A stretch of 64,000 nucleotides of DNA from Opitutales bacterium (lineage in GTDB: Bacteria > Verrucomicrobiota > Verrucomicrobiia > Opitutales > UBA2987), in the NCBI GenBank assembly GCA_965226885.1, contig CBDDEL010000012.1, positions 352,001-416,000 of the forward strand, given 5' to 3'. A program made the translations under genes and the position numbers. This document shows positions 19,632 through 51,123 of the stretch, one piece after another (position 1 is the stretch's first letter; each line of letters begins with the position of its first letter). Under the pieces are notes generated by a model that was given only the letters and a program-made list of their open reading frames with translations, did no database searches and was not told where the DNA came from.

Positions 19632-20174
19632 GTGCCCCTTACAGATGCAAATCTCATTGACCGGGTTCTGCATGATGACGACCGCAATGCTTTCAACGAG
19701 TTGGTCCGCCGTCACCAATCGGCCGTTCGCGGATTGCACCGCAGGCTTACCAACGGCAACGAGACCCTGTCTGACGATTTGGCTCAAATCACTTTTATTC
19801 GCGCCTACCGCTCTTTGGGCAAATTCCGGCGCAAGTCCAAATTCGGCACCTGGCTCTACAGGATCGCCTACAATGTTTTTCTCAGCGAAGTGCGACGCTC
19901 CCGGCCCCATTTGCAAATGGAACTGGATGAAGCCATCCACGAGGACGCGGAGCCATCGCATTCCGACAAAGTCAGCCTTAAACAAGATTTGGAGGACGCC
20001 ATGAAGCGATTGACAGAACCGGAGCGGACGGCACTATTTTTATGCTACAATGAAGGCCTTTCCCACGAAGAGGCGTCCGCGGCTTTGCATCTGCCGCTGG
20101 GCACAATAAAAACCCACATCCTGCGCGGAAAAGCGAAATTGCGTCAATACCTCAAAGACTGGGCTCCTTCCTGA
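19632..20174 (+). CDS. ECF RNA polymerase sigma factor
   Basis: DDLAQITFI.AY, TWLYRIAYN, GLSHEE...LPLGTIKTHI.RG. Confidence 0.93.
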   Translation: MPLTDANLIDRVLHDDDRNAFNELVRRHQSAVRGLHRRLTNGNETLSDDLAQITFIRAYRSLGKFRRKSKFGTWLYRIAYNVFLSEVRRSRPHLQMELDEAIHEDAEPSHSDKVSLKQDLEDAMKRLTEPERTALFLCYNEGLSHEEASAALHLPLGTIKTHILRGKAKLRQYLKDWAPS

Positions 20175-22901: not shown

Positions 22902-25900
22902 TTAGAGCTTCTTCTTGATGCTTATCCAGAGAAACTGCACTTCCGCCGTATAGAGGAAGCCAGGATAGCCCTGGGTGTTTCCGAAATTGGCAAAGGCGCT
23001 CGGGGGTTTCTGGGCGAAGACATTGTCCACACCAACCGTGACGGTTGTGCCGCCCCACCATTTTTCTGAATCTTTGAAGAAGGTGTAGGAAGACTGAACG
23101 TCCCAAATCCAGCGGGCATGAACTCTGTCGATATTCCCCCAGTTTGGAGGAGATGCTTCATCATAATCGACGAATCCATCAGTAAAGTAACCGCTCATTG
23201 TGGTGCTGAGGTTACGCCAGTTCCAGGTCAGGGACTGGTTGAATTTCCACTCCAAATAGGCGTCGCTGGCCGATCCGGATTGGGAGACAACCTGGGTTTG
23301 GCTGCCGAAAGGTCCAATTATGGTCTCACCGGCAGTTTGGTCATTGTCCACCAGGATAAAGTCGGCATCAGTGGAATGGCCCACCCTATCGAATCTCGGT
23401 AAATCCCCAGTATCTGCAAGCTGGTATTTCAACAACTTGGTGGCGTTGACGGTAAAGGAGAAAGTTCCCCAGTTCTCGGTTTCCAGCAGGTAGCTGGCGG
23501 CGAAATCGAGGCCTTTCACATCGGTGCGTCCCTGATTCAAGAAGACCGTGCCGAGAAGAATAATCTCGTCGGTACTGGAGAGATCGACAAACTCACCCGG
23601 AAAGAGTGTTTCACCGGCAAAGAAACGGTCAACCGTATCCTGCGCATTAAAACTGACGGTGCCTTCACGTTTGACGTTCCAGAGGTCCACGCTGACAGTA
23701 GCGCCCTTGATGAACTTGGGCGAATAAACAACGCCCAAATTCCAGGATGCGGTATCCTCGGGAGAGAGGCCGGTGTTACCGAGAAAAACGGTGTCCTGCT
23801 CCTGCTCGAACCTGCCCGTTCTCGGGTTGCTGATAGGCGTGAGCGAGAAGGTGGAGGTGGAGTACAGTTCATAGAGGGACGGTTGGCGAAACCCCTCGCC
23901 CCAGCTTGCCCTCAAGACCAACTGCTCAACAGGAGCCAAGCGAACCGAAAATTTCGGAACATTTCGGAACGAAAGTACTAATGTCGGTTTGAAGGAACTT
24001 TTCATAACGTCCGGACGCGTTGACTTCCAGGGAATGAACAAAGCTATCCGATTCCGGGCTGATGACCGGTATGTTAAATTCGAAGAAAAGCGAACCGACT
24101 CTCCTGCGGCCCCGGGTGACGGCAGCCGTAGACGAGCCGATGACATCACCTGTGGTGCCTGACGAATCAGGACTCTGGAAGAGTTCCTCCTGTCGCCAGT
24201 CCCAACCAGCGGCAAATCCCACACCGCCGGCAGGGAGATTGAATAGCTCAGACGTGGTCATATTTCCCCAGGCCTGGAGCAATTCCGATTCGTTGCGATT
24301 TTTCTGCTCAACGATACCCGTTGGGGCCAGGAGCACATTGTTGGGCAATGGGTTTTCCCAATAAACGAATGGATTGAAGGCCGTTGTGGTCCCAAGGTAA
24401 TCGCTGCTGGTGGGATCGAAAAACGAGTCATTCGAATTGACCAGGCGGTTGAATGTGCTGATGGAGACCAATTTGTTAAAAGCGGTTTCGTTGATTTTAC
24501 CGAAGCCAAAACCAACATCCGCGTTCCACTTGTTCCACAGGTTGGTGGCTCTCATGCCCCAATTAACGTTGAAGGCCTCCGTCTTGGTTATATAGATGCG
24601 GTTACCGAAATCAAAGAGGCGGATGCGGGTACGTCCTTCCAGATCCATGTTGAAAGGATTGAACTCGTTGAAGGCGCCATCAGCTACTTCTGGAATTCGT
24701 CCTTCCCGGTCCGCCCGGATGAATGGGTTGGGCGTATTGGCCGGGATGACCAGGGATACACCGCCCGGATTGGAGAAACTGCCGGTGGCCGAAGGGGCCA
24801 ACTGGTTGTCAGACTCAGCATTTTGGTAGCTGAACATGCCATAGGTTTCCACATTATCCGTGCCGAAGAGCTTGTGACGGAAATTCATGAATGCGCCAAT
24901 ACGCTTGAGTTCAGGTAAGGAGCCGGACTCGGCGTTGAAGTTGTACTTCGAGTACGGGCCGCCAAATCCGCCCATGTAAGTATATAAATTTGCCGGCACA
25001 TCGCCTTGGTTATTGGCATTTTGACTTGTCGGGAGGGGAACCCCAAAGGCGTCCGTAGGACCAGAGGTGACGAGAATTATATCGTCTTGCCCGATTGCCT
25101 CGCCTTCCAGACCGGGGATATCAGCGCCTGCAGCAAGACCCAGGGCATCCCTCGCCGTCTGTCCCGATATCTCGATATTGAGAGGGCTCGAATTGGAGCT
25201 GAGGAATGGGGGAAGCGAGAAGTCGTTGTCGCCGTTGAACATGGGGTTGCGCGTGTAGTAGTTCATCCCCACGGTAATGCTGCCCTTTTCGCTCTTTACG
25301 CCGTAAACGGCACTGAGCAGAAATTCGGAAGAATCGTTGCCGCTGGACTCATTGCCGTAGCGAACAGTCAATTCACCGCCTTCATAGTTGTCGCGCATGA
25401 TGATATTGATCACGCCGGCAACAGCGTCCGCGCCGTAAGTAGCGGAAGCGCCATCCTTGAGCACCTCGATGCGCTGGATAGCGGAAGCGGGTATAGAGCT
25501 CAGGTCAACAAAAGCGGTGGTTCCGCCAGTGCCGGTCGGGAAAACAGGCAAGCGGCGTCCGTTGATGAGAACCAAGGTGGTGTCCGGGCCAAGGCCGCGC
25601 AAGGATGCGGAGGTGGCGCCGGAGGTAAACCCGGTGGCATTGTTGGATACAGGAACGGTATTCCCATTGTTGACGGTGAGTTTCTGGAGCAGTTCCTCAG
25701 CCGTGACAAAACCGGTCTGGTCGATCTGGAAGCGTTCCAGCACCTGAACGGGTGTGGCGCGGGTTTCGTAGGCTGTTTCAGTAGTGGGAATCATGGAGCC
25801 GGTGATAATCATCTCCTCGAGTTCCTCCTCTTCATCCTGAGCCGTCAGGTTGATCGCGAATAGAAGCGCGGGAACAACCAGAAGCCATCCAAAACGAAGG

Positions 25901-25941
25901 AGTAGTGGGTTGGTATTGTTTTCTTGTAGTTTGTTTTTCAT
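22902..25941 (-). pseudogene. TonB-dependent receptor, frameshifted
   Basis: ITGSMIP, SLRGLG..TLVLINGRR, IEVLKDGASATYGADAVAGVINII, LRASWGEGFRQPSL. A 10-bp duplication at 23951-23970 splits the ORF. Confidence 0.92.
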
Positions 25942-45702: not shown

Positions 45703-46440
45703 CTAAATTGAGAGGGCGTACTGGAGGATACCCAACGCTACCGTGACGGCTGTTTCCACTCGCAATACGTTTGGCCCGAGAGAAACCGGTTTAAAGCCGT
45801 GTTCATAGGCGATGGCATACTCTTCGCCGGTTAGATCGCCTTCCGGGCCGATGAGCCAGATGGCCTCCGTGGGCAAGGGTTTATCAAGAATCAGTTGACG
45901 GGCCGGCTCTTTTGAGTCCAGCGAGGCCAACAGTTTCAGAGTATGCGGGGACGGGCTTGAGCAGAATTCGGCCAGGGGCATCGGAGGATTGATTCGCGGA
46001 AGGAAAGGATTGCCCGACTGTTTACAGGCTTCGATGGCGATTTTGCGCCAACGGGAAAGTTTGAATTCGCGACGGGAGGGGTTGACGCCGGCTTCGCAAT
46101 GGTCGGTTGCCAGTGGCTGAATGCGCCACGTTCCCAATTCGGAGGCTTTCTGCACGATTCGCTCCATAACCTTGCCCTTGGGTAGGGCCTGGGCCAGGGT
46201 CACAGTGCAAGGCGGGGGCACGGCTCTGCGGTGGCTGAGAACAGCCAGGCGGGCAATCTTATGGTCGGTTCCGGCCAGGCGGCACTGCCATTGATTGCCC
46301 TCGCCGTCAAAAACCACCAACTCTTCACCGATTCGGGCCCTGCGCACCTTCAAAAGGTGGCGGCTTTCCGAGTCGTCCAACCGGATTTGTTGGCCGTCAA
46401 AATCCTCGGCGGGCGAAAAATAACAACGAATTCCCGGCAT
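45703..46440 (-). CDS. rsmE: 16S rRNA m3U1498 methyltransferase
   Basis: HLLKVRR, KASELG, EACKQSG, IGPEG, LGPNVLRVETA. Confidence 0.9.
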   Translation of the reverse strand: MPGIRCYFSPAEDFDGQQIRLDDSESRHLLKVRRARIGEELVVFDGEGNQWQCRLAGTDHKIARLAVLSHRRAVPPPCTVTLAQALPKGKVMERIVQKASELGTWRIQPLATDHCEAGVNPSRREFKLSRWRKIAIEACKQSGNPFLPRINPPMPLAEFCSSPSPHTLKLLASLDSKEPARQLILDKPLPTEAIWLIGPEGDLTGEEYAIAYEHGFKPVSLGPNVLRVETAVTVALGILQYALSI

Positions 46441-46488
46441 GGGCGTAAACAAACAATAAAGTTTAATACTACACAATAAAGTTTAATA

Positions 46489-46678: not shown

Positions 46679-48206
46679 TTACCACAGAGCGACCTTTCGC
46701 TGAACCGTTCCCGATGCTCGACCATGCTCAATTTGCAGGCAACGAAGCAATTCCTCTTTCGGCCCATTACAGGCAGGATTGTTGTATTGGTTCTGATTTT
46801 CAAAGGGATCATCACTGAGATTGTATGATTGCATCACTGAGATTGTATGATTGTATAGCTCTCCCTGCGTCAATACAGGATAGACCGTAAGCCGCCATTC
46901 GTTGGTGCAAATAGAGTAATTAAAGTACTCAGACCCGCGGCAGTACCATGCAGCGGAGAGTGCATATTCGCGGAATTGATTGTTCCCGCTACGTGTAAGG
47001 GGCAATCCCTGGAACTCCTCCGGGATTGAAATACCGCAGCGGTAAAGGAGTTCGGGCGCGACGTCTATATTACTGCTGATGGAGTCAACACGATCCTTTG
47101 GTCCATTGGGCTCGGCAATGATCAGCGGTATGTTTAATAGCGATCTGCAACAGAACGGACCTTTGAAAAGCATTCCGTGATCGCCGAGGAAGTCTCCATG
47201 ATCTGAAGTAAAAACGACAATGGTGTTTTCATCCAAACCAAGATCGGAAAGGCGGGTTAGAATTCGTCCGATACTTGCGTCGATGAGCGCAATCATACCG
47301 TGTGTGTGGGCAAGTACGGCTTGGTATACTTCGCCTCGAAACGATGGATAATGGTGCGCGCACCCGTTACCCTCGAAGGGGGATTGGGTCATAGCCTCCC
47401 GCCACGGTAGCGGCTTGTTTTCGTTCTCGCCAACGACGTAGTGAGGTTCGGGAAATTCCACGTCGTCAAACATCGAAGCATAGGGCTCTGGCGGCGTGAA
47501 AGGATGGTGTGGATCGGGGAAAGAGACTTGAAGGTAAAACGGACAGGTTCCATCCTGTCTCTCAATCGCGGCAATCGCGCGGTCAGCCACCCACGTGCTG
47601 TGGTGGGCTTCGACGGGAATGGCGGATTTATAGCATTGGAATTCCGGATCCCGTAAGTAATCTTGGGCGCCTTCAAACCTCAACTTCAGATTCGGGAAGT
47701 TGTGCTCCCGCCAACGCCCGTAATGTCCTTCGTAATGTCCTTCGACTTGTTCCCCATGGCCAGCGGTGATTTCCACATGGTCGAAACCGTAGTAGGGGCC
47801 GTTCCAATCATCGAGTTCACCATTTTTCCACCTTGCCTTGCTCTCCATCGATGGCGAGACGGGGTCGTGTTGATAAGGCTGAAAGTGCGCCTTGCCAATC
47901 AGTGCTGTATTATAACCGTGCTCCTTAAATACCGCCGGTAATGTCAGCTCAGTCTCAGGCATGAACAATCCATTCTCTCGAACCCCATGGGTTCCCATGG
48001 GTTTGAGGATAGCGGCTCGTGAGGAAAGAAACACGGCTCGGCGTGCAAACCGGGTTGACGGATTGATGGTTCGTATAGAGGGTCCCCCTCGCGGCCAAAA
48101 AGTCGATGACCGGCGTACGGGCGAGCCTGTTGCCCATGCAACCGAGGCCATCGGCTCGCAGTTGGTCCGTTTGGATAACGATTATGTTCTTTCTGCGCGG
48201 ATTCAT
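46679..48206 (-). pseudogene. Sulfatase (formylglycine-dependent), frameshifted
   Basis: TDQLR, CTPSR, GKAH, DPHHPF, TSDHGD, GELY. A 10-bp duplication at 47984-48003 shifts the frame. Confidence 0.9.
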
Positions 48207-48283
48207 CGAGATTCATCGAGCTACAGATTGTTCGATTATAATAGGGCAGGTTTATCAGTTATCAGGCAGGTGAATCAATCGGT

Positions 48284-48319
48284 AAAAAAAAGACGCCGCA
48301 GAACAAAGTCTGCGGCGTC
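48284..48319 (-). terminator. Rho-independent terminator
   Basis: GACGCCGCAGA-N6-TCTGCGGCGTC with 8 U on the minus strand. Confidence 0.88.
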
Positions 48320-48402
48320 ACCCACTGCTTAACAAACTACAAACCAGACTGAAACTTAAAACTAAACTCTCGCTCTAGTCTCTCCAATCAGGTTAGATTT
48401 CA
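48284..48402 (-). ncRNA. Candidate sRNA, sibling 1
   Basis: GAAC-N17-GTCTAA upstream; 24-nt shared core; 11-bp hairpin plus U8. Confidence 0.65.
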
Positions 48403-48407
48403 ATTTC

Positions 48408-48436
48408 TTAGACGGACTGGAAAGCAGAACGTTCAA
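48408..48436 (-). promoter_or_regulatory. ECF (sigmaE-like) promoter
   Basis: TTGAACGTT...GTCTAA; GAAC-N17-GTC spacing. Confidence 0.55.
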
Positions 48437-48492
48437 TAATGATCGGAATTGTTTTCCCTCGAGCCAATGGATTTCCGGCTGCCGGGAGCCTT

Positions 48493-48622
48493 TAAAAGTG
48501 CAGGCGCCGCCGGAATAAACCGGCGGCGCCTACAAGAGTTAACCAAACTACAAACCAGACTGAAACTATGAACTTTAACCCTTGCTTCCAAATTCCATAG
48601 GGCCAGCATAGGGCCAGACTTG
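48493..48622 (-). ncRNA. Candidate sRNA, sibling 2
   Basis: TTGAACGTT...GTCT upstream (48628-48657); same 24-nt core; 12-bp hairpin at 48502-48531. Confidence 0.6.
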
Positions 48623-48752
48623 TAATTAGAGACTTCGCATGGGGATAAAACGTTCAAAATTCTTGTTTTTAAATTGGCCCATTCGCATTTTTCGTTGAAA
48701 AATGATGGGATGCGGGATGCGGGTATTTACTTGAATTGAAAACGCGGCCGGA

Positions 48753-49331
48753 ATGAGAATCACAGGGGGCAGGGCGAGGGGCGCACCGCTGAAAAGCCCT
48801 CCCAAAAATGTGCGTCCGGCCACCGACCGCACACGTCAGGCGGTTTTTTCCAGCCTGGGCGGTTCGATCGTCGGGTCTTCCGTTTTGGATTTGTTTGCCG
48901 GAAGCGGCTCCTATGGTCTTGAGGCCATCAGCCGTGGCGCCATACGCTGCCATTTTGTGGAAAAAAACCGAAGAACCCTGGCTTGTCTGATGGAAAATCT
49001 GAACGTCCTCAACAAGGCCCTAAAAGGACAGCAGGCGGCACAGGCCGTTAGCCGTGTGACACAAAAAGATGTCTTTAAATGGCGGACTGAAAGACCGGAA
49101 GGCTTCGATTTCATCTTTCTGGACGCGCCCTACTCGCTGGCCGTCGAGCGTTCGGATTCGCTTTTTGCCCTGGCCGCTAAATTTATTGGTCAAAACCCGG
49201 CTGGCCGCCTTTTGTTTGAAATGCCCGGCGATTTTCATCCCGAGCCAGCAGGCTGGGAACTGGCACGTAGCCTGGGCAGCCGAAAATCTGGAGAACCGGC
49301 TATGAATATTTATAAAAAAACTGCCACCTGA
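48753..49331 (+). CDS. rsmD: 16S rRNA m2G966 methyltransferase
   Basis: MRITGG..G, RP.TD..R, LDLFAGSG, EAISRGA, FLDAPY. Confidence 0.9.
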   Translation: MRITGGRARGAPLKSPPKNVRPATDRTRQAVFSSLGGSIVGSSVLDLFAGSGSYGLEAISRGAIRCHFVEKNRRTLACLMENLNVLNKALKGQQAAQAVSRVTQKDVFKWRTERPEGFDFIFLDAPYSLAVERSDSLFALAAKFIGQNPAGRLLFEMPGDFHPEPAGWELARSLGSRKSGEPAMNIYKKTAT

Positions 49332-49371: not shown

Positions 49372-50100
49372 TCACATCAGCCCCATTTTTGCCGCCATGA
49401 TCGATATGGCGGCGATGGTTGCCGTTTCTATCCTCAAGACGCGTTCGCCCAGATGGACGAGAGTGAAACCGGACTCCCGTAGAGTGTCTCTTTCTCCAGC
49501 GGACCATCCGCGTTCCGGCCCAACCGCGAGCAGGCAGTCGTGTTTTTCATCTCCATCCATTGGATACCTGGAAAGCGCCGCCGCCGATTCATAGTTATCG
49601 AGGCCGATTCGGGTTTGACCTTCCGCAAAATCATTCAAAGCCGCTCTCAAGGTGGGGAAATGGGAAACTTGTGGGATAACGGTGGAAAAAGCCTGTTCAG
49701 CCCCTTGGGCCAATTGCCGGCGCCACTCGCCGGTACTCCACAACTTGCTTTTTTTATAAGATGGCTCCCCTTTTTCAGTCTCGAAAAACACGATCCTGAC
49801 GAGTCCAAAACTGGCGCTTTCGCGAAGCAGCTTTCTAGCCGTTTGAGGCCTGGGCAGGCCTGCCAGCAAAGAAATCGGGCAAGGCTTCGGAACATCTTCT
49901 CCCCATTCGATTTTTAGGCGCAGCTCCTCGGCGGAAGCATCGTTCAAAATAACCGCCTTCCCCCTTGGCCCGTTGACGAGGCCGATATCCAAACGGTCGC
50001 CTTTTTGCATTCCGAGAACTTCCCGTATATGCACGGCGCGCCGGTCGTCGCCGGGGAGCGTCTCATAATCCGATTTTTTCTGAAAAAGAATCAAGTTCAT
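49372..50100 (-). CDS. rsmE: RsmE-family methyltransferase, second paralog
   Basis: GLPRP, GAEQA, VGPERGW, LGERVLRIETA. Confidence 0.85.
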   Translation of the reverse strand: MNLILFQKKSDYETLPGDDRRAVHIREVLGMQKGDRLDIGLVNGPRGKAVILNDASAEELRLKIEWGEDVPKPCPISLLAGLPRPQTARKLLRESASFGLVRIVFFETEKGEPSYKKSKLWSTGEWRRQLAQGAEQAFSTVIPQVSHFPTLRAALNDFAEGQTRIGLDNYESAAALSRYPMDGDEKHDCLLAVGPERGWSAGERDTLRESGFTLVHLGERVLRIETATIAAISIMAAKMGLM

Positions 50101-50151
50101 GGCAGGAGTGAAAAATGGAAAAAAACCACCACTCATGGAGAACAAAAATTC

Positions 50152-50598: not shown

Positions 50599-50826
50599 AT
50601 CAACTCTCCTTCTATATTAACCGGAATTTCCCAAATGACTGGTATGAATCGTTAAAATCATCGTAGCGAAATCTGTAGCTTTTGAGTGCATCATGCTCCT
50701 TTCAATACGTTTTGGCAAATCGTTTTGGCAAATGTCTTTTTTCTTGATATTTATCAGTTGCATAGGAGGCAGTGATGTGCACTGGAAAAAGTGGACACGA
50801 GATTCTCCTAAATGGAGAATCGAAGC

Positions 50827-51123
50827 ATGGGAAGAAGACGCTTTAGTATAGAGTTCAAAAATGAGGCAGTTCAACTGATGATACTCGATGGTCTGAGCGC
50901 CACCGAGGTATCGACCAAACTTGGGGTCAACACCAACCAATTGTATAGGTGGAAGAGGCTCTATCTGGACGATCAGCAGGGCGAAGCCACCTCAAAGCGA
51001 CAGAGCAGTCCGAAGGAGATGGCGGCCGAGATAGATCGTCTTCGCAAAGAGCTGCGCCGCTCGGAGCGGATCAACCAGATACTAAAAAAAACGGTGGGCT
51101 ACTTTGCCAAGGACGAACAATGA
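50827..51123 (+). CDS. IS3 transposase OrfA
   Basis: F..EFK.EAV HTH; ILKKTVGYFAK. Confidence 0.9.
   Translation: MGRRRFSIEFKNEAVQLMILDGLSATEVSTKLGVNTNQLYRWKRLYLDDQQGEATSKRQSSPKEMAAEIDRLRKELRRSERINQILKKTVGYFAKDEQ

Follow-up and report, generated by a model that had tools for sequence, protein, structure and literature searches.

Two tandem genes with a sigmaE-like promoter box and a shared GU-rich core, probable members of an undescribed small-RNA family of the order Opitutales

We analysed a stretch of 64,000 nucleotides (the window) from the genome of an Opitutales bacterium (GTDB lineage Bacteria; Verrucomicrobiota; Verrucomicrobiia; Opitutales; UBA2987; assembly GCA_965226885.1, contig CBDDEL010000012.1, positions 352,001 to 416,000). 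The gap between a sulfatase gene and rsmD holds two tandem units on the minus strand, unit 2 upstream and unit 1 downstream, with a spacing of 211 nt and a direct repeat of 73 nt. Both begin with TTGAACGTT. In each, a TTGAAC-N17/18-GTCT box is followed by a 5' part that differs between the two, then by a 24-nt core that does not, and finally by a GC hairpin and a T-run. The two units are very probably genuine members of a new, order-wide family of small RNAs (sRNAs) whose promoter is sigmaE-like and whose effector module is GU-rich. Their predicted starts, near 48621 for unit 2 and near 48401 for unit 1, were inferred from the 5-6-nt discriminator of Escherichia coli sigmaE promoters and are not mapped. 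The features of the locus are as follows; promoter scores are from a position weight matrix (PWM).

48284-48660, minus strand: region with both units, two predicted tandem paralogous sRNA genes
48652-48657, minus strand: -35 box TTGAAC of unit 2, with a T-rich tract before it (PWM 21.9 bits)
48630-48633, minus strand: -10 box GTCT of unit 2 (aGTCTcTAA), 18 nt after TTGAAC
48492-48622, minus strand: predicted transcript of unit 2, ~130 nt, 'GUUAACUCUUG' linker type, start inferred
48596-48617, minus strand: 11-nt tandem duplication, CATAGGGCCAG twice, in the 5' part of unit 2
48544-48567, minus strand: core of unit 2, AGUUUCAGUCUGGUUUGUAGUUUG, an array of GU-rich boxes
48494-48534, minus strand: terminator of unit 2, a 15-bp hairpin (48499-48534) and only T4 (48494-48497)
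48431-48436, minus strand: -35 box TTGAAC of unit 1 (PWM 29.8 bits)
48410-48413, minus strand: -10 box GTCT of unit 1 (cCGTCTAA)
48284-48402, minus strand: predicted transcript of unit 1, ~118 nt, 'UUAAGCAGUGGG' linker type, start inferred
48333-48356, minus strand: core of unit 1, same sequence as that of unit 2
48284-48319, minus strand: intrinsic terminator of unit 1, a perfect 11-bp hairpin GACGCCGCAGA/TCTGCGGCGTC (48292-48319) and T8 (48284-48291)
48753-49331, plus strand: rsmD (RsmD, Cons_hypoth95), divergent from the sRNA genes
46679-48151, minus strand: sulfatase gene, downstream

This layout bears out all that the original prediction, made from the letters of the window, said of the sequence. 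Twin minus-strand units about 210 bp apart in the sulfatase-rsmD gap, identical cores at 48333-48356 and 48544-48567, and a GTCT at 17 or 18 nt from GAAC (17 nt in unit 1, 18 nt in unit 2) were all found as described. Both GC hairpins were found as well, with arms that are 100% complementary in unit 1 and 15-nt arms that are 93% complementary in unit 2. The 11-bp duplication in unit 2 is likewise present; it is specific to the window genome (G000), and three same-genus relatives carry a single copy. As had been claimed, there is no credible open reading frame (ORF): the sole ORF at the units is a 74-aa TTG frame that spans unit 2, starts within the promoter box and is broken by the 11-nt indel between close relatives. 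Homologues of the unit 2 type are present in five further genomes (G002, G003, G004, G006 and G008). Tandem pairs with the window's two linker types were seen both within its genus and in two further genera of its family, and additional tandem pairs occur elsewhere in the order, which indicates that the duplication is old and recurrent. An apparent decayed remnant of a unit-2-type terminator lies upstream of the single unit-1-type gene of G007 (L009); that genus has apparently lost one of the twins.

A BLAST search with the 377-nt region gave matches in 20 of 61 same-order genomes, in many families. We also scanned about 186,000 genomes, one per bacterial or archaeal species, for the exact core with one N allowed. 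The scan returned 49 stretches, all 49 labelled Verrucomicrobiota and the majority Opitutales or Puniceicoccaceae; the carriers include Cerasicoccus frondis, C. maritimus, Ruficoccus, Oceanipulchritudo and Ca. Moanabacter. From the loci of relatives, 67 distinct units were gathered, all with the same layout, a recurrence that bears out the claim of two paralogous sRNA genes with a shared conserved core. A covariance model was seeded from 10 of these units, with the terminator supplied as structure. It was then rebuilt, as R2, from 71 matches in 58 of 75 loci, the left-out loci being mostly duplicate fetches. Of 151 genomes sampled from the order, 94 had the RNA according to R2, as did 86 of the 130 high-quality ones. 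Many of the misses were genomes of 1.3 Mb or less, and the copy number was usually 1-3 per genome and at most 9. Conservation of the core in relatives and recovery of the family in the order with its rsmD synteny, both proposed as checks by the original prediction, were thus observed. The core matched twice in the window at up to 3 mismatches, compared with 0 expected from 100 shuffles, and also only twice in the complete genome of 5,479,947 bases (5.48 Mb), so the units are not MITE (miniature inverted-repeat transposable element) or REP (repetitive extragenic palindrome) repeats, as had also been expected. An E-value scan of 47900-49100 against Rfam 15 found nothing at gathering score; the best minus-strand match was Spot_42 (23.1 bits versus 80), and GcvB (RF00022) reached 17.1 bits versus 42. 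A titles-level literature search on small, noncoding or structured RNAs of Verrucomicrobia, Opitutales and Puniceicoccaceae found no such RNA, in line with the novelty claimed for the pair. Judged by sequence comparison, the units belong to an undescribed RNA family across the order Opitutales (Verrucomicrobiota).

The terminators support this assignment. A strong hairpin precedes a T-run in all 67 units. Covariation of the terminators, which the original prediction had proposed from the two stems of the window, held across the family: changes on both sides occur at 11 of 11 pairs, and 98.6% of 779 stem cells pair, compared with 66.6% in shuffles and at most 58.6% for slid partners, in an alignment that was fitted to the structure model and so favours pairing. 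The combination of MAFFT and RNAalifold on all 67 units left the terminator invisible because the stem and loop lengths vary. In a consensus terminator scan of the window, the hairpin of unit 1 was called and that of unit 2 was not. This fits a leaky first terminator, and the terminator of unit 2 is probably leaky.

The core has the layout AGUUU-CAGUCU-(A/G)GUUU-GU-AGUUU-G, which amounts to an array of (U)AGUUUG boxes. Sixteen core columns were invariant across the 67 sequences, and invariance fell at every position with no third-codon pattern. The 24-nt core contains three AGUUU boxes in 30 and two in 34 of the 67 units, and two GUUUG boxes in 64. A divergent family (f34) retained only AGUUUGU(A/U)GUUUGUU of the core, together with the promoter. 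The part between the predicted start and the core is variable, with a length of 20-58 nt across the family, and the predicted total length of the RNA is 87-132 nt, with a median of 100.

The promoter box is also a family feature. The unit 1 version, TGAACGT-N16-TCTAA, is preceded by a T-rich tract. Of the 67 units, 64 have an upstream match to a loose pattern (TTGAAC with one mismatch or none, N15-18, then GTC, GAC or ATC), and 53 have one to the strict TTGAAC-N17/18-GTC. Controls for the strict pattern gave 0/67 on the opposite strand, 0.15% in shuffles and 4/67 downstream, where the matches are probably the promoter of the next tandem unit. The family consensus is ttttTTGAACg...cCGTCTnA; TTGAAC and GTC are separated by 17 nt in 35 units and by 18 nt in 29. 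The presence of TGAAC in 64/64 promoters is partly imposed by the search pattern. Positions that were not imposed are conserved as well, namely a G after the -35 box (52/64), a C before GTC (55/64) and a T after GTC (54/64), together with the upstream T-rich tract and T/A-rich positions after the -35 G. With a weight matrix built from the family, the promoters of unit 1 and unit 2 rank first and second genome-wide. The E. coli sigmaE promoters are described by GGAACTTTT and (T/C)GGTCAAAA, with a preferred GGAACTT-N16-TCAAA spacing, an A/T-rich UP region and a discriminator of 5-6 nt, in the part of Rhodius et al. drawn on here (PMC1312014). For the group IV -35 element, the corresponding part of Lane and Darst gives an AAC motif with a G upstream of it and a T-tract (PMC1540707). 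The family box has the same G, AAC and downstream T-tract, and in addition a CGTC/TC-type -10, a fixed spacing of 16-17 nt and an A/T-rich upstream region. The family promoter thus has the E. coli sigmaE or group IV architecture. It is not the housekeeping promoter, since it lies upstream of 0/49 tRNA genes; a sigma-70-like site with up to 3 mismatches was found upstream of only 8/49.

A plain scan for the TTGAAC...CGTCT spacing was rejected as a search tool, as it was swamped by an unrelated repeat of ~90 copies in which the spacing is 12 and not 17/18. One copy of this repeat lies in the window at ~50820-50875 on the minus strand (G000 C12:402858). It contains TTGAAC-N12-CGTCT and a GTG start, 36 of the 40 matches listed are identical over the displayed 78 nt, and it is presumably an insertion sequence (IS). 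In G008, of the same family, a repeat with TTGAACCGCGCGTTGAGGGCCACGTCT occurs 23 times among the pattern matches (e.g. C1:79808-79834) and is a high-copy, chance mimic of the promoter. A separate observation was made at L131 (G039 C1:67281-67308, minus strand), where a box TTGAACGTTTT...CCGTCT behind a T-run is followed by ~100 nt with neither an ORF nor a GU-rich core; this may be a second, unrelated sRNA under the same sigma factor.

In multi-copy genomes, most of the extra copies of the module had no promoter; they started at the stop codon of a large gene or close to it, that is, in its 3' untranslated region (3' UTR). Eight of the nine copies of G045 were examined, the ninth being the promoter-bearing L013. 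One of the eight had a box, six followed ORFs of 711-1127 aa, and one followed nothing recognisable. Two of the six ORFs matched Plug above the Pfam cut-off and one below it (17.6 bits); the other three were cut at the N-terminus by the locus ends and shared the C-terminal sequence. The neighbouring genes encode a sulfatase, a rhamnogalacturonan lyase and a GH32 protein. Among the six copies of G130, all examined, two had a box, three followed Plug-domain ORFs (988-1197 aa, ending in F) and one was left unassigned, so that five Plug receptors above the cut-off precede promoter-less copies in the two genomes. All five copies of G085 were examined: two formed tandem promoter-bearing units, one followed a porin, one a PstS-like binding protein, and the fifth, a weak match, a rhodopsin. 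Among the 20 lower-scoring model matches of a blind sample, six had no promoter: one lay after a periplasmic amino-acid-binding protein and one after a receptor-like C-terminus; one with a degenerate core had no upstream ORF call, and three weak or degenerate cores followed a heavy-metal-domain protein, a thioredoxin-like protein and GroEL. The divergent and 3'-UTR variants retained two or more boxes and not the rest of the core. Since Plug matches number only 47 in G045 and 20 in G130 (genomes of 4.5 and 4.8 Mb), the association of the module with outer-membrane receptors is strong, and it is inflated by paralogous gene duplication. There are no 3'-UTR copies in the window's own genome. The 3'-UTR form and the spread over the whole order are points that the original prediction had missed.

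Metatranscriptome contigs from three runs of one study lie over unit 1. A 128-nt contig of run X2 covers 48326-48453 with 0 differences, and a contig of run X1 covers 48284-48453 with 7 differences; the same runs also cover the cores of units of relatives. The contigs of these RNA libraries pass through the interval from unit 2 to unit 1. No contig of the three runs lies over the flanking genes, which is not usable as evidence of a discrete transcript, and runs with a word share of 0.08-0.12 carry no information on habitat.

We propose the following mechanism. A sigmaE-like ECF (extracytoplasmic function, group IV) sigma factor would read the promoter, and for this reason the RNAs would be made when the cell envelope is stressed or a comparable extracytoplasmic signal arrives. 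As the effector, the GU-rich core would most likely pair with C/A-rich segments near the start codons of mRNAs that encode nutrient-uptake proteins of the envelope, lowering their translation; TonB-dependent receptors are the best target candidates. Hfq (PF17209) had no match in the 96.3%-complete window genome, CsrA and ProQ were not found there, and one RRM_1 protein was, encoded at C13:112989-113201. The pairing would be independent of Hfq, perhaps helped by this single RRM protein, and in some families the 3'-UTR copies of core plus terminator would yield mRNA-derived RNAs with the same seed. An envelope or nutrient-uptake role is plausible. For the complete explanation, which joins the sRNA family to ECF control and to base pairing with envelope-uptake mRNAs, we see the balance tipping slightly in favour.

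Complementarity to receptor leaders is the evidence for the pairing step. Among the 18 unique receptor leaders of G000, 5 contain a complement of at least 8 nt versus 147 of 4828 genes (Fisher P = 1.5e-4), an enrichment that is marginal against composition-matched shuffled probes, 5.7% of which reach it (P = 0.057). One candidate site lies in the window:

25924-25935, minus strand: hypothetical target site AACAAACUACAA, codons 3-6 of a TonB-dependent-receptor-like ORF (23926-25941, minus strand)

This site is a perfect 12-nt complement to positions 15-24 of the unit 1 core plus the next two U, and it is invariant in 4/4 same-genus orthologues while the adjacent codons vary. Orthologous leaders of two other receptor genes contain complements of 7-10 nt at differing positions or registers. 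Over the three genes, complements reach 8 nt or more in 9/10 orthologue leaders from genomes other than G000, and 9 nt or more in 8/10, compared with 2 and 0 for the reversed probe. Dinucleotide shuffles gave P = 0.003 and P = 0.0007, respectively, for these ten leaders; because the genes were picked for their match in G000 and the orthologues are kin, the result amounts to only about two extra independent events. Two side observations concern receptor genes. Four Plug receptor genes of G000 have identical scores (C9:18452-18817, C10:132135-132500, C11:166298-166663 and C16:949255-949620), and three of the four share identical 780-aa products and 3' flanks, which places a receptor gene inside a large repeated segment. 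An ECF sigma gene (180 aa, L099; window 19701-19904, plus strand; G000 C12:371701-371904) lies ~6 kb from the candidate target receptor gene and has no promoter box upstream.

The limits just given for the receptor leaders weigh against the complete explanation, and so do the results in this and the next paragraph. In a genome-wide k-mer target search of G000, start-proximal matches stayed within the spread of shuffled seeds, and RNAduplex energies were no better at 5' ends than in gene interiors. An unbiased test in family f38, on 30 Plug genes of G045 and G130, failed to reproduce the enrichment, with complements of at least 8 nt in 7/30 (P = 0.16) and of at least 9 nt in 1/30 (P = 0.77). 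The coding-region site is also kept in G001, whose 93%-complete assembly yielded no sRNA match. The mean unpaired probability of the core was 0.44, the same as in the shuffled control (0.44), and RNAalifold could fold the core into a G.U-rich hairpin, for which the invariant sequence leaves no covariation as a check. The original prediction had suggested repression of outer-membrane-protein mRNAs through a seed; what stands of it is the complementarity to receptor leaders in the window's genus, and neither the genome-wide search nor the f38 replication extended it.

The link to an ECF sigma factor and the ends of the transcripts meet similar difficulties. The window genome encodes 17 sigma-70-family genes, and the box was found within 300 nt upstream of none of them, bar one chance match within an ORF. 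For three ECF sigmas RpoE was the best or near-best NCBIfam match, at 152, 149 and 132 bits, far below the RpoE equivalog cut-off of 236. In G000, the PWM matches ranked below the two sRNA promoters did not exceed those of a shuffled genome; in five relatives, the box was about as frequent as the reversed control once the IS-like repeat was set aside, and no sigma gene carrying the box was found. The predicted ECF or sigmaE type of the promoter thus survived as a box architecture that is conserved in the family, and as signs of ECF dependence neither a sigma gene carrying the box nor a regulon was found. The contigs reach ~50 nt upstream of the predicted start of unit 1, and that of X1 runs 134 nt beyond the terminator, a pattern that could arise by read-through from unit 2 or from DNA carried over into the library. 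Discrete transcripts of ~120 nt, which had been expected, were therefore not borne out, as the contigs overrun both predicted ends.

The main rival keeps the RNAs and replaces base pairing with protein binding. The (U)AGUUUG boxes would bind a single-strand RNA-binding protein of the RRM or cold-shock-domain type, which would also recognise these boxes where they occur in 3' UTRs of mRNAs for receptors, porins and binding proteins, and the promoter-driven RNA would compete for this partner or deliver it. We regard this as unlikely overall; several observations speak for it. The core is an array of short repeats with two or three AGUUU boxes, its 22 order-wide invariant nucleotides exceed a typical seed, and it is the boxes that the divergent and 3'-UTR variants retain. 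The module also occurs in 3' UTRs of envelope-protein genes, and base-pairing targets were undetectable genome-wide. However, known protein-sponge RNAs have far more sites than two or three, which counts against a decoy, and the excess complementarity in the receptor leaders of the window's genus also argues for pairing. The complement of RNA-binding proteins, one RRM_1 protein with no Hfq, CsrA or ProQ found, is in keeping with a protein partner, and in the material available from PMC11697453 the Bacteroides RRM protein RbpB binds the multicopy FopS sRNAs.

A further alternative, which we consider quite improbable, is that the RNAs are real and their promoter is not ECF-dependent, being read by a different alternative sigma factor or, despite its unusual -10, by the primary sigma, without induction by stress. 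No cognate sigma, autoregulatory box or regulon was found, and the housekeeping consensus of the lineage is unclear, with a sigma-70-like site at only 8/49 tRNA genes. Against this, the box is missing upstream of 49/49 tRNA genes, and the G/AAC/T-tract -35, the CGTC-type -10 and the 16/17-nt spacing are those of group IV and not of TTGACA/TATAAT.

The neighbourhood bears on whether the units act in cis, as tandem leaders or attenuators of the sulfatase gene or as elaborate terminators. The sulfatase gene lies on the same strand and starts 133 nt after unit 1, one module of G045 lies between a receptor gene and a sulfatase gene, and RNA-library contigs span the region from unit 2 to unit 1. However, the downstream gene is not conserved: sulfatase is downstream in 5 of 74 fetched loci, all duplicate fetches of G000, whereas divergent rsmD is upstream of the sRNA locus in 35 of the 74 (duplicates included), even at RsmD identities as low as 37-48%. 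The varying downstream gene indicates free-standing genes rather than leaders. Furthermore, both units are preceded by a promoter of their own, and unit 1 ends in a strong terminator with T8. In the blind sample, whose 20 lower-scoring matches came from 20 genomes of 15 families, 14 had the box and were promoter-plus-terminator units in unrelated contexts. A cis-acting role is therefore highly improbable. Mobile or repetitive DNA (MITE or REP) or a small protein-coding gene is hardly credible, the tandem-duplicate arrangement and the 74-aa TTG ORF across unit 2 standing against two copies per genome, no terminal inverted repeats beyond the terminators, rsmD synteny that survives at 40% protein identity, a core that is invariant everywhere with no third-codon pattern, and an ORF frame broken by an 11-nt indel.

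If the preferred reading of base-pairing sRNAs is carried further, the (U)AGUUUG-box module plus terminator could be a portable post-transcriptional element with two forms, one of stand-alone RNAs fired by an ECF sigma and one at the 3' ends of envelope-uptake mRNAs, in an Hfq-independent network. We put this forward tentatively, as an idea that is more doubtful than not. If it were true, the 3' ends of the mRNAs for TonB-dependent receptors, porins and periplasmic-binding proteins would be the second form. The network would then balance nutrient uptake, for example by choosing between polysaccharide-uptake systems or by shutting them under envelope stress, and would act via the shared seed or via a shared protein partner of the RRM or cold-shock type.

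Several known systems resemble the family in outline. RybB, MicA and MicL are sigmaE-dependent envelope-stress sRNAs of E. coli and Salmonella, and FoxI and FoxJ of Fusobacterium are reportedly sRNAs of the same kind. Like these, the Opitutales RNAs are short, with an ECF-type promoter, an intrinsic terminator and an apparent link to outer-membrane proteins. In Vibrio cholerae, VrrA and MicV are described as sibling sigmaE-dependent sRNAs in the portion of PMC6694218 consulted, and the Opitutales pair likewise comprises two siblings with one common conserved effector sequence. Unlike RybB, MicA, MicV and VrrA, to which they have no sequence or Rfam relationship, the Opitutales RNAs have a conserved segment that is internal and GU-rich rather than a 5'-terminal seed; their host has no detected Hfq, and no autoregulated sigma operon with the box was found. 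The second resemblance is to the multicopy sRNAs FopS/GibS of Bacteroides thetaiotaomicron and their RRM protein RbpB (PMC11697453, in part). Both families consist of lineage-specific paralogous sRNAs that have a promoter motif of their own and a shared conserved segment ahead of the terminator, in a neighbourhood rich in polysaccharide-utilisation genes. As far as that partial source goes, FopS/GibS also has at least one 3'-UTR-derived member and a host with single-domain RRM protein(s) and no Hfq, CsrA or ProQ. The Opitutales family differs in phylum and sequence, has no Rfam match, usually 1-3 and up to 9 copies, and an ECF-like promoter.

A third resemblance is in the core. GcvB has a long, conserved, G/U-rich single-stranded region that pairs with C/A-rich sites in mRNAs of periplasmic-binding proteins and transporters, and DapZ is a 3'-UTR-derived RNA with a GcvB-like seed. 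The conserved G/U-rich region and the reuse of a seed in 3' UTRs are shared features, as a resemblance only; promoter and structure differ from those of GcvB (RF00022), and the match was below gathering score. The closest known systems are the sigmaE-dependent sRNAs, especially MicV/VrrA, and Bacteroides FopS/RbpB; the Opitutales family is similar to them in outline and belongs to no described family.

Opitutales are major degraders of sulfated polysaccharides in marine and soil environments, and almost nothing is known so far of RNA-based regulation in Verrucomicrobiota. The counts in the part of PMC9029176 used here were 8 sRNA families for Planctomycetes-Verrucomicrobia-Chlamydiae and 345 for Proteobacteria. 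The family described here is directly testable, as an order-wide regulator with a clear promoter, a covariance model and a concrete candidate target, and cultured hosts exist, since two Cerasicoccus type strains carry it. If the proposed mechanism were true, the pairing of an alternative sigma factor with a noncoding repressor arm would extend to a new phylum without Hfq, and the family could show how Opitutales coordinate their many TonB-dependent uptake systems.

Outside the order, 12 of 131 sampled genomes of the class had R2 matches, all weak (best E = 5.5e-6). Nine of the 12 were inspected; in the other three, the match was confined to the terminator half of R2. Seven of those inspected were rejected as they had no promoter box, three of these being gene-terminal terminators of one orthologous gene, and at L094 the upstream sequence was too short to judge the box. 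The sole match with a box among the nine inspected was L092 (G267, another order of the same class), where TTGAAC-N18-GTCTAC is followed, after ~60 nt, by the GU-rich tract GUAGUUUGUUUUUGUUUGG and then a terminator; this locus may be distantly related to the sRNA family. At L089, L090 and L091, in three genomes of genus g94 from another order, a GU-rich tract and terminator stand right after the stop codon of one orthologous gene whose product has the C-terminus ...HALAMHS*, and GU-rich 3'-UTR elements may thus be more widespread in the class.

At the locus itself, 257-aa RsmE-like RNA methyltransferase genes (PF04452) lie on both sides of the sRNA genes and close to rsmD, at 45703-46476 and 49372-50145, both on the minus strand. 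The two products share 22% identity (E = 1e-15), indicating that they are distant paralogues rather than the result of a recent duplication.

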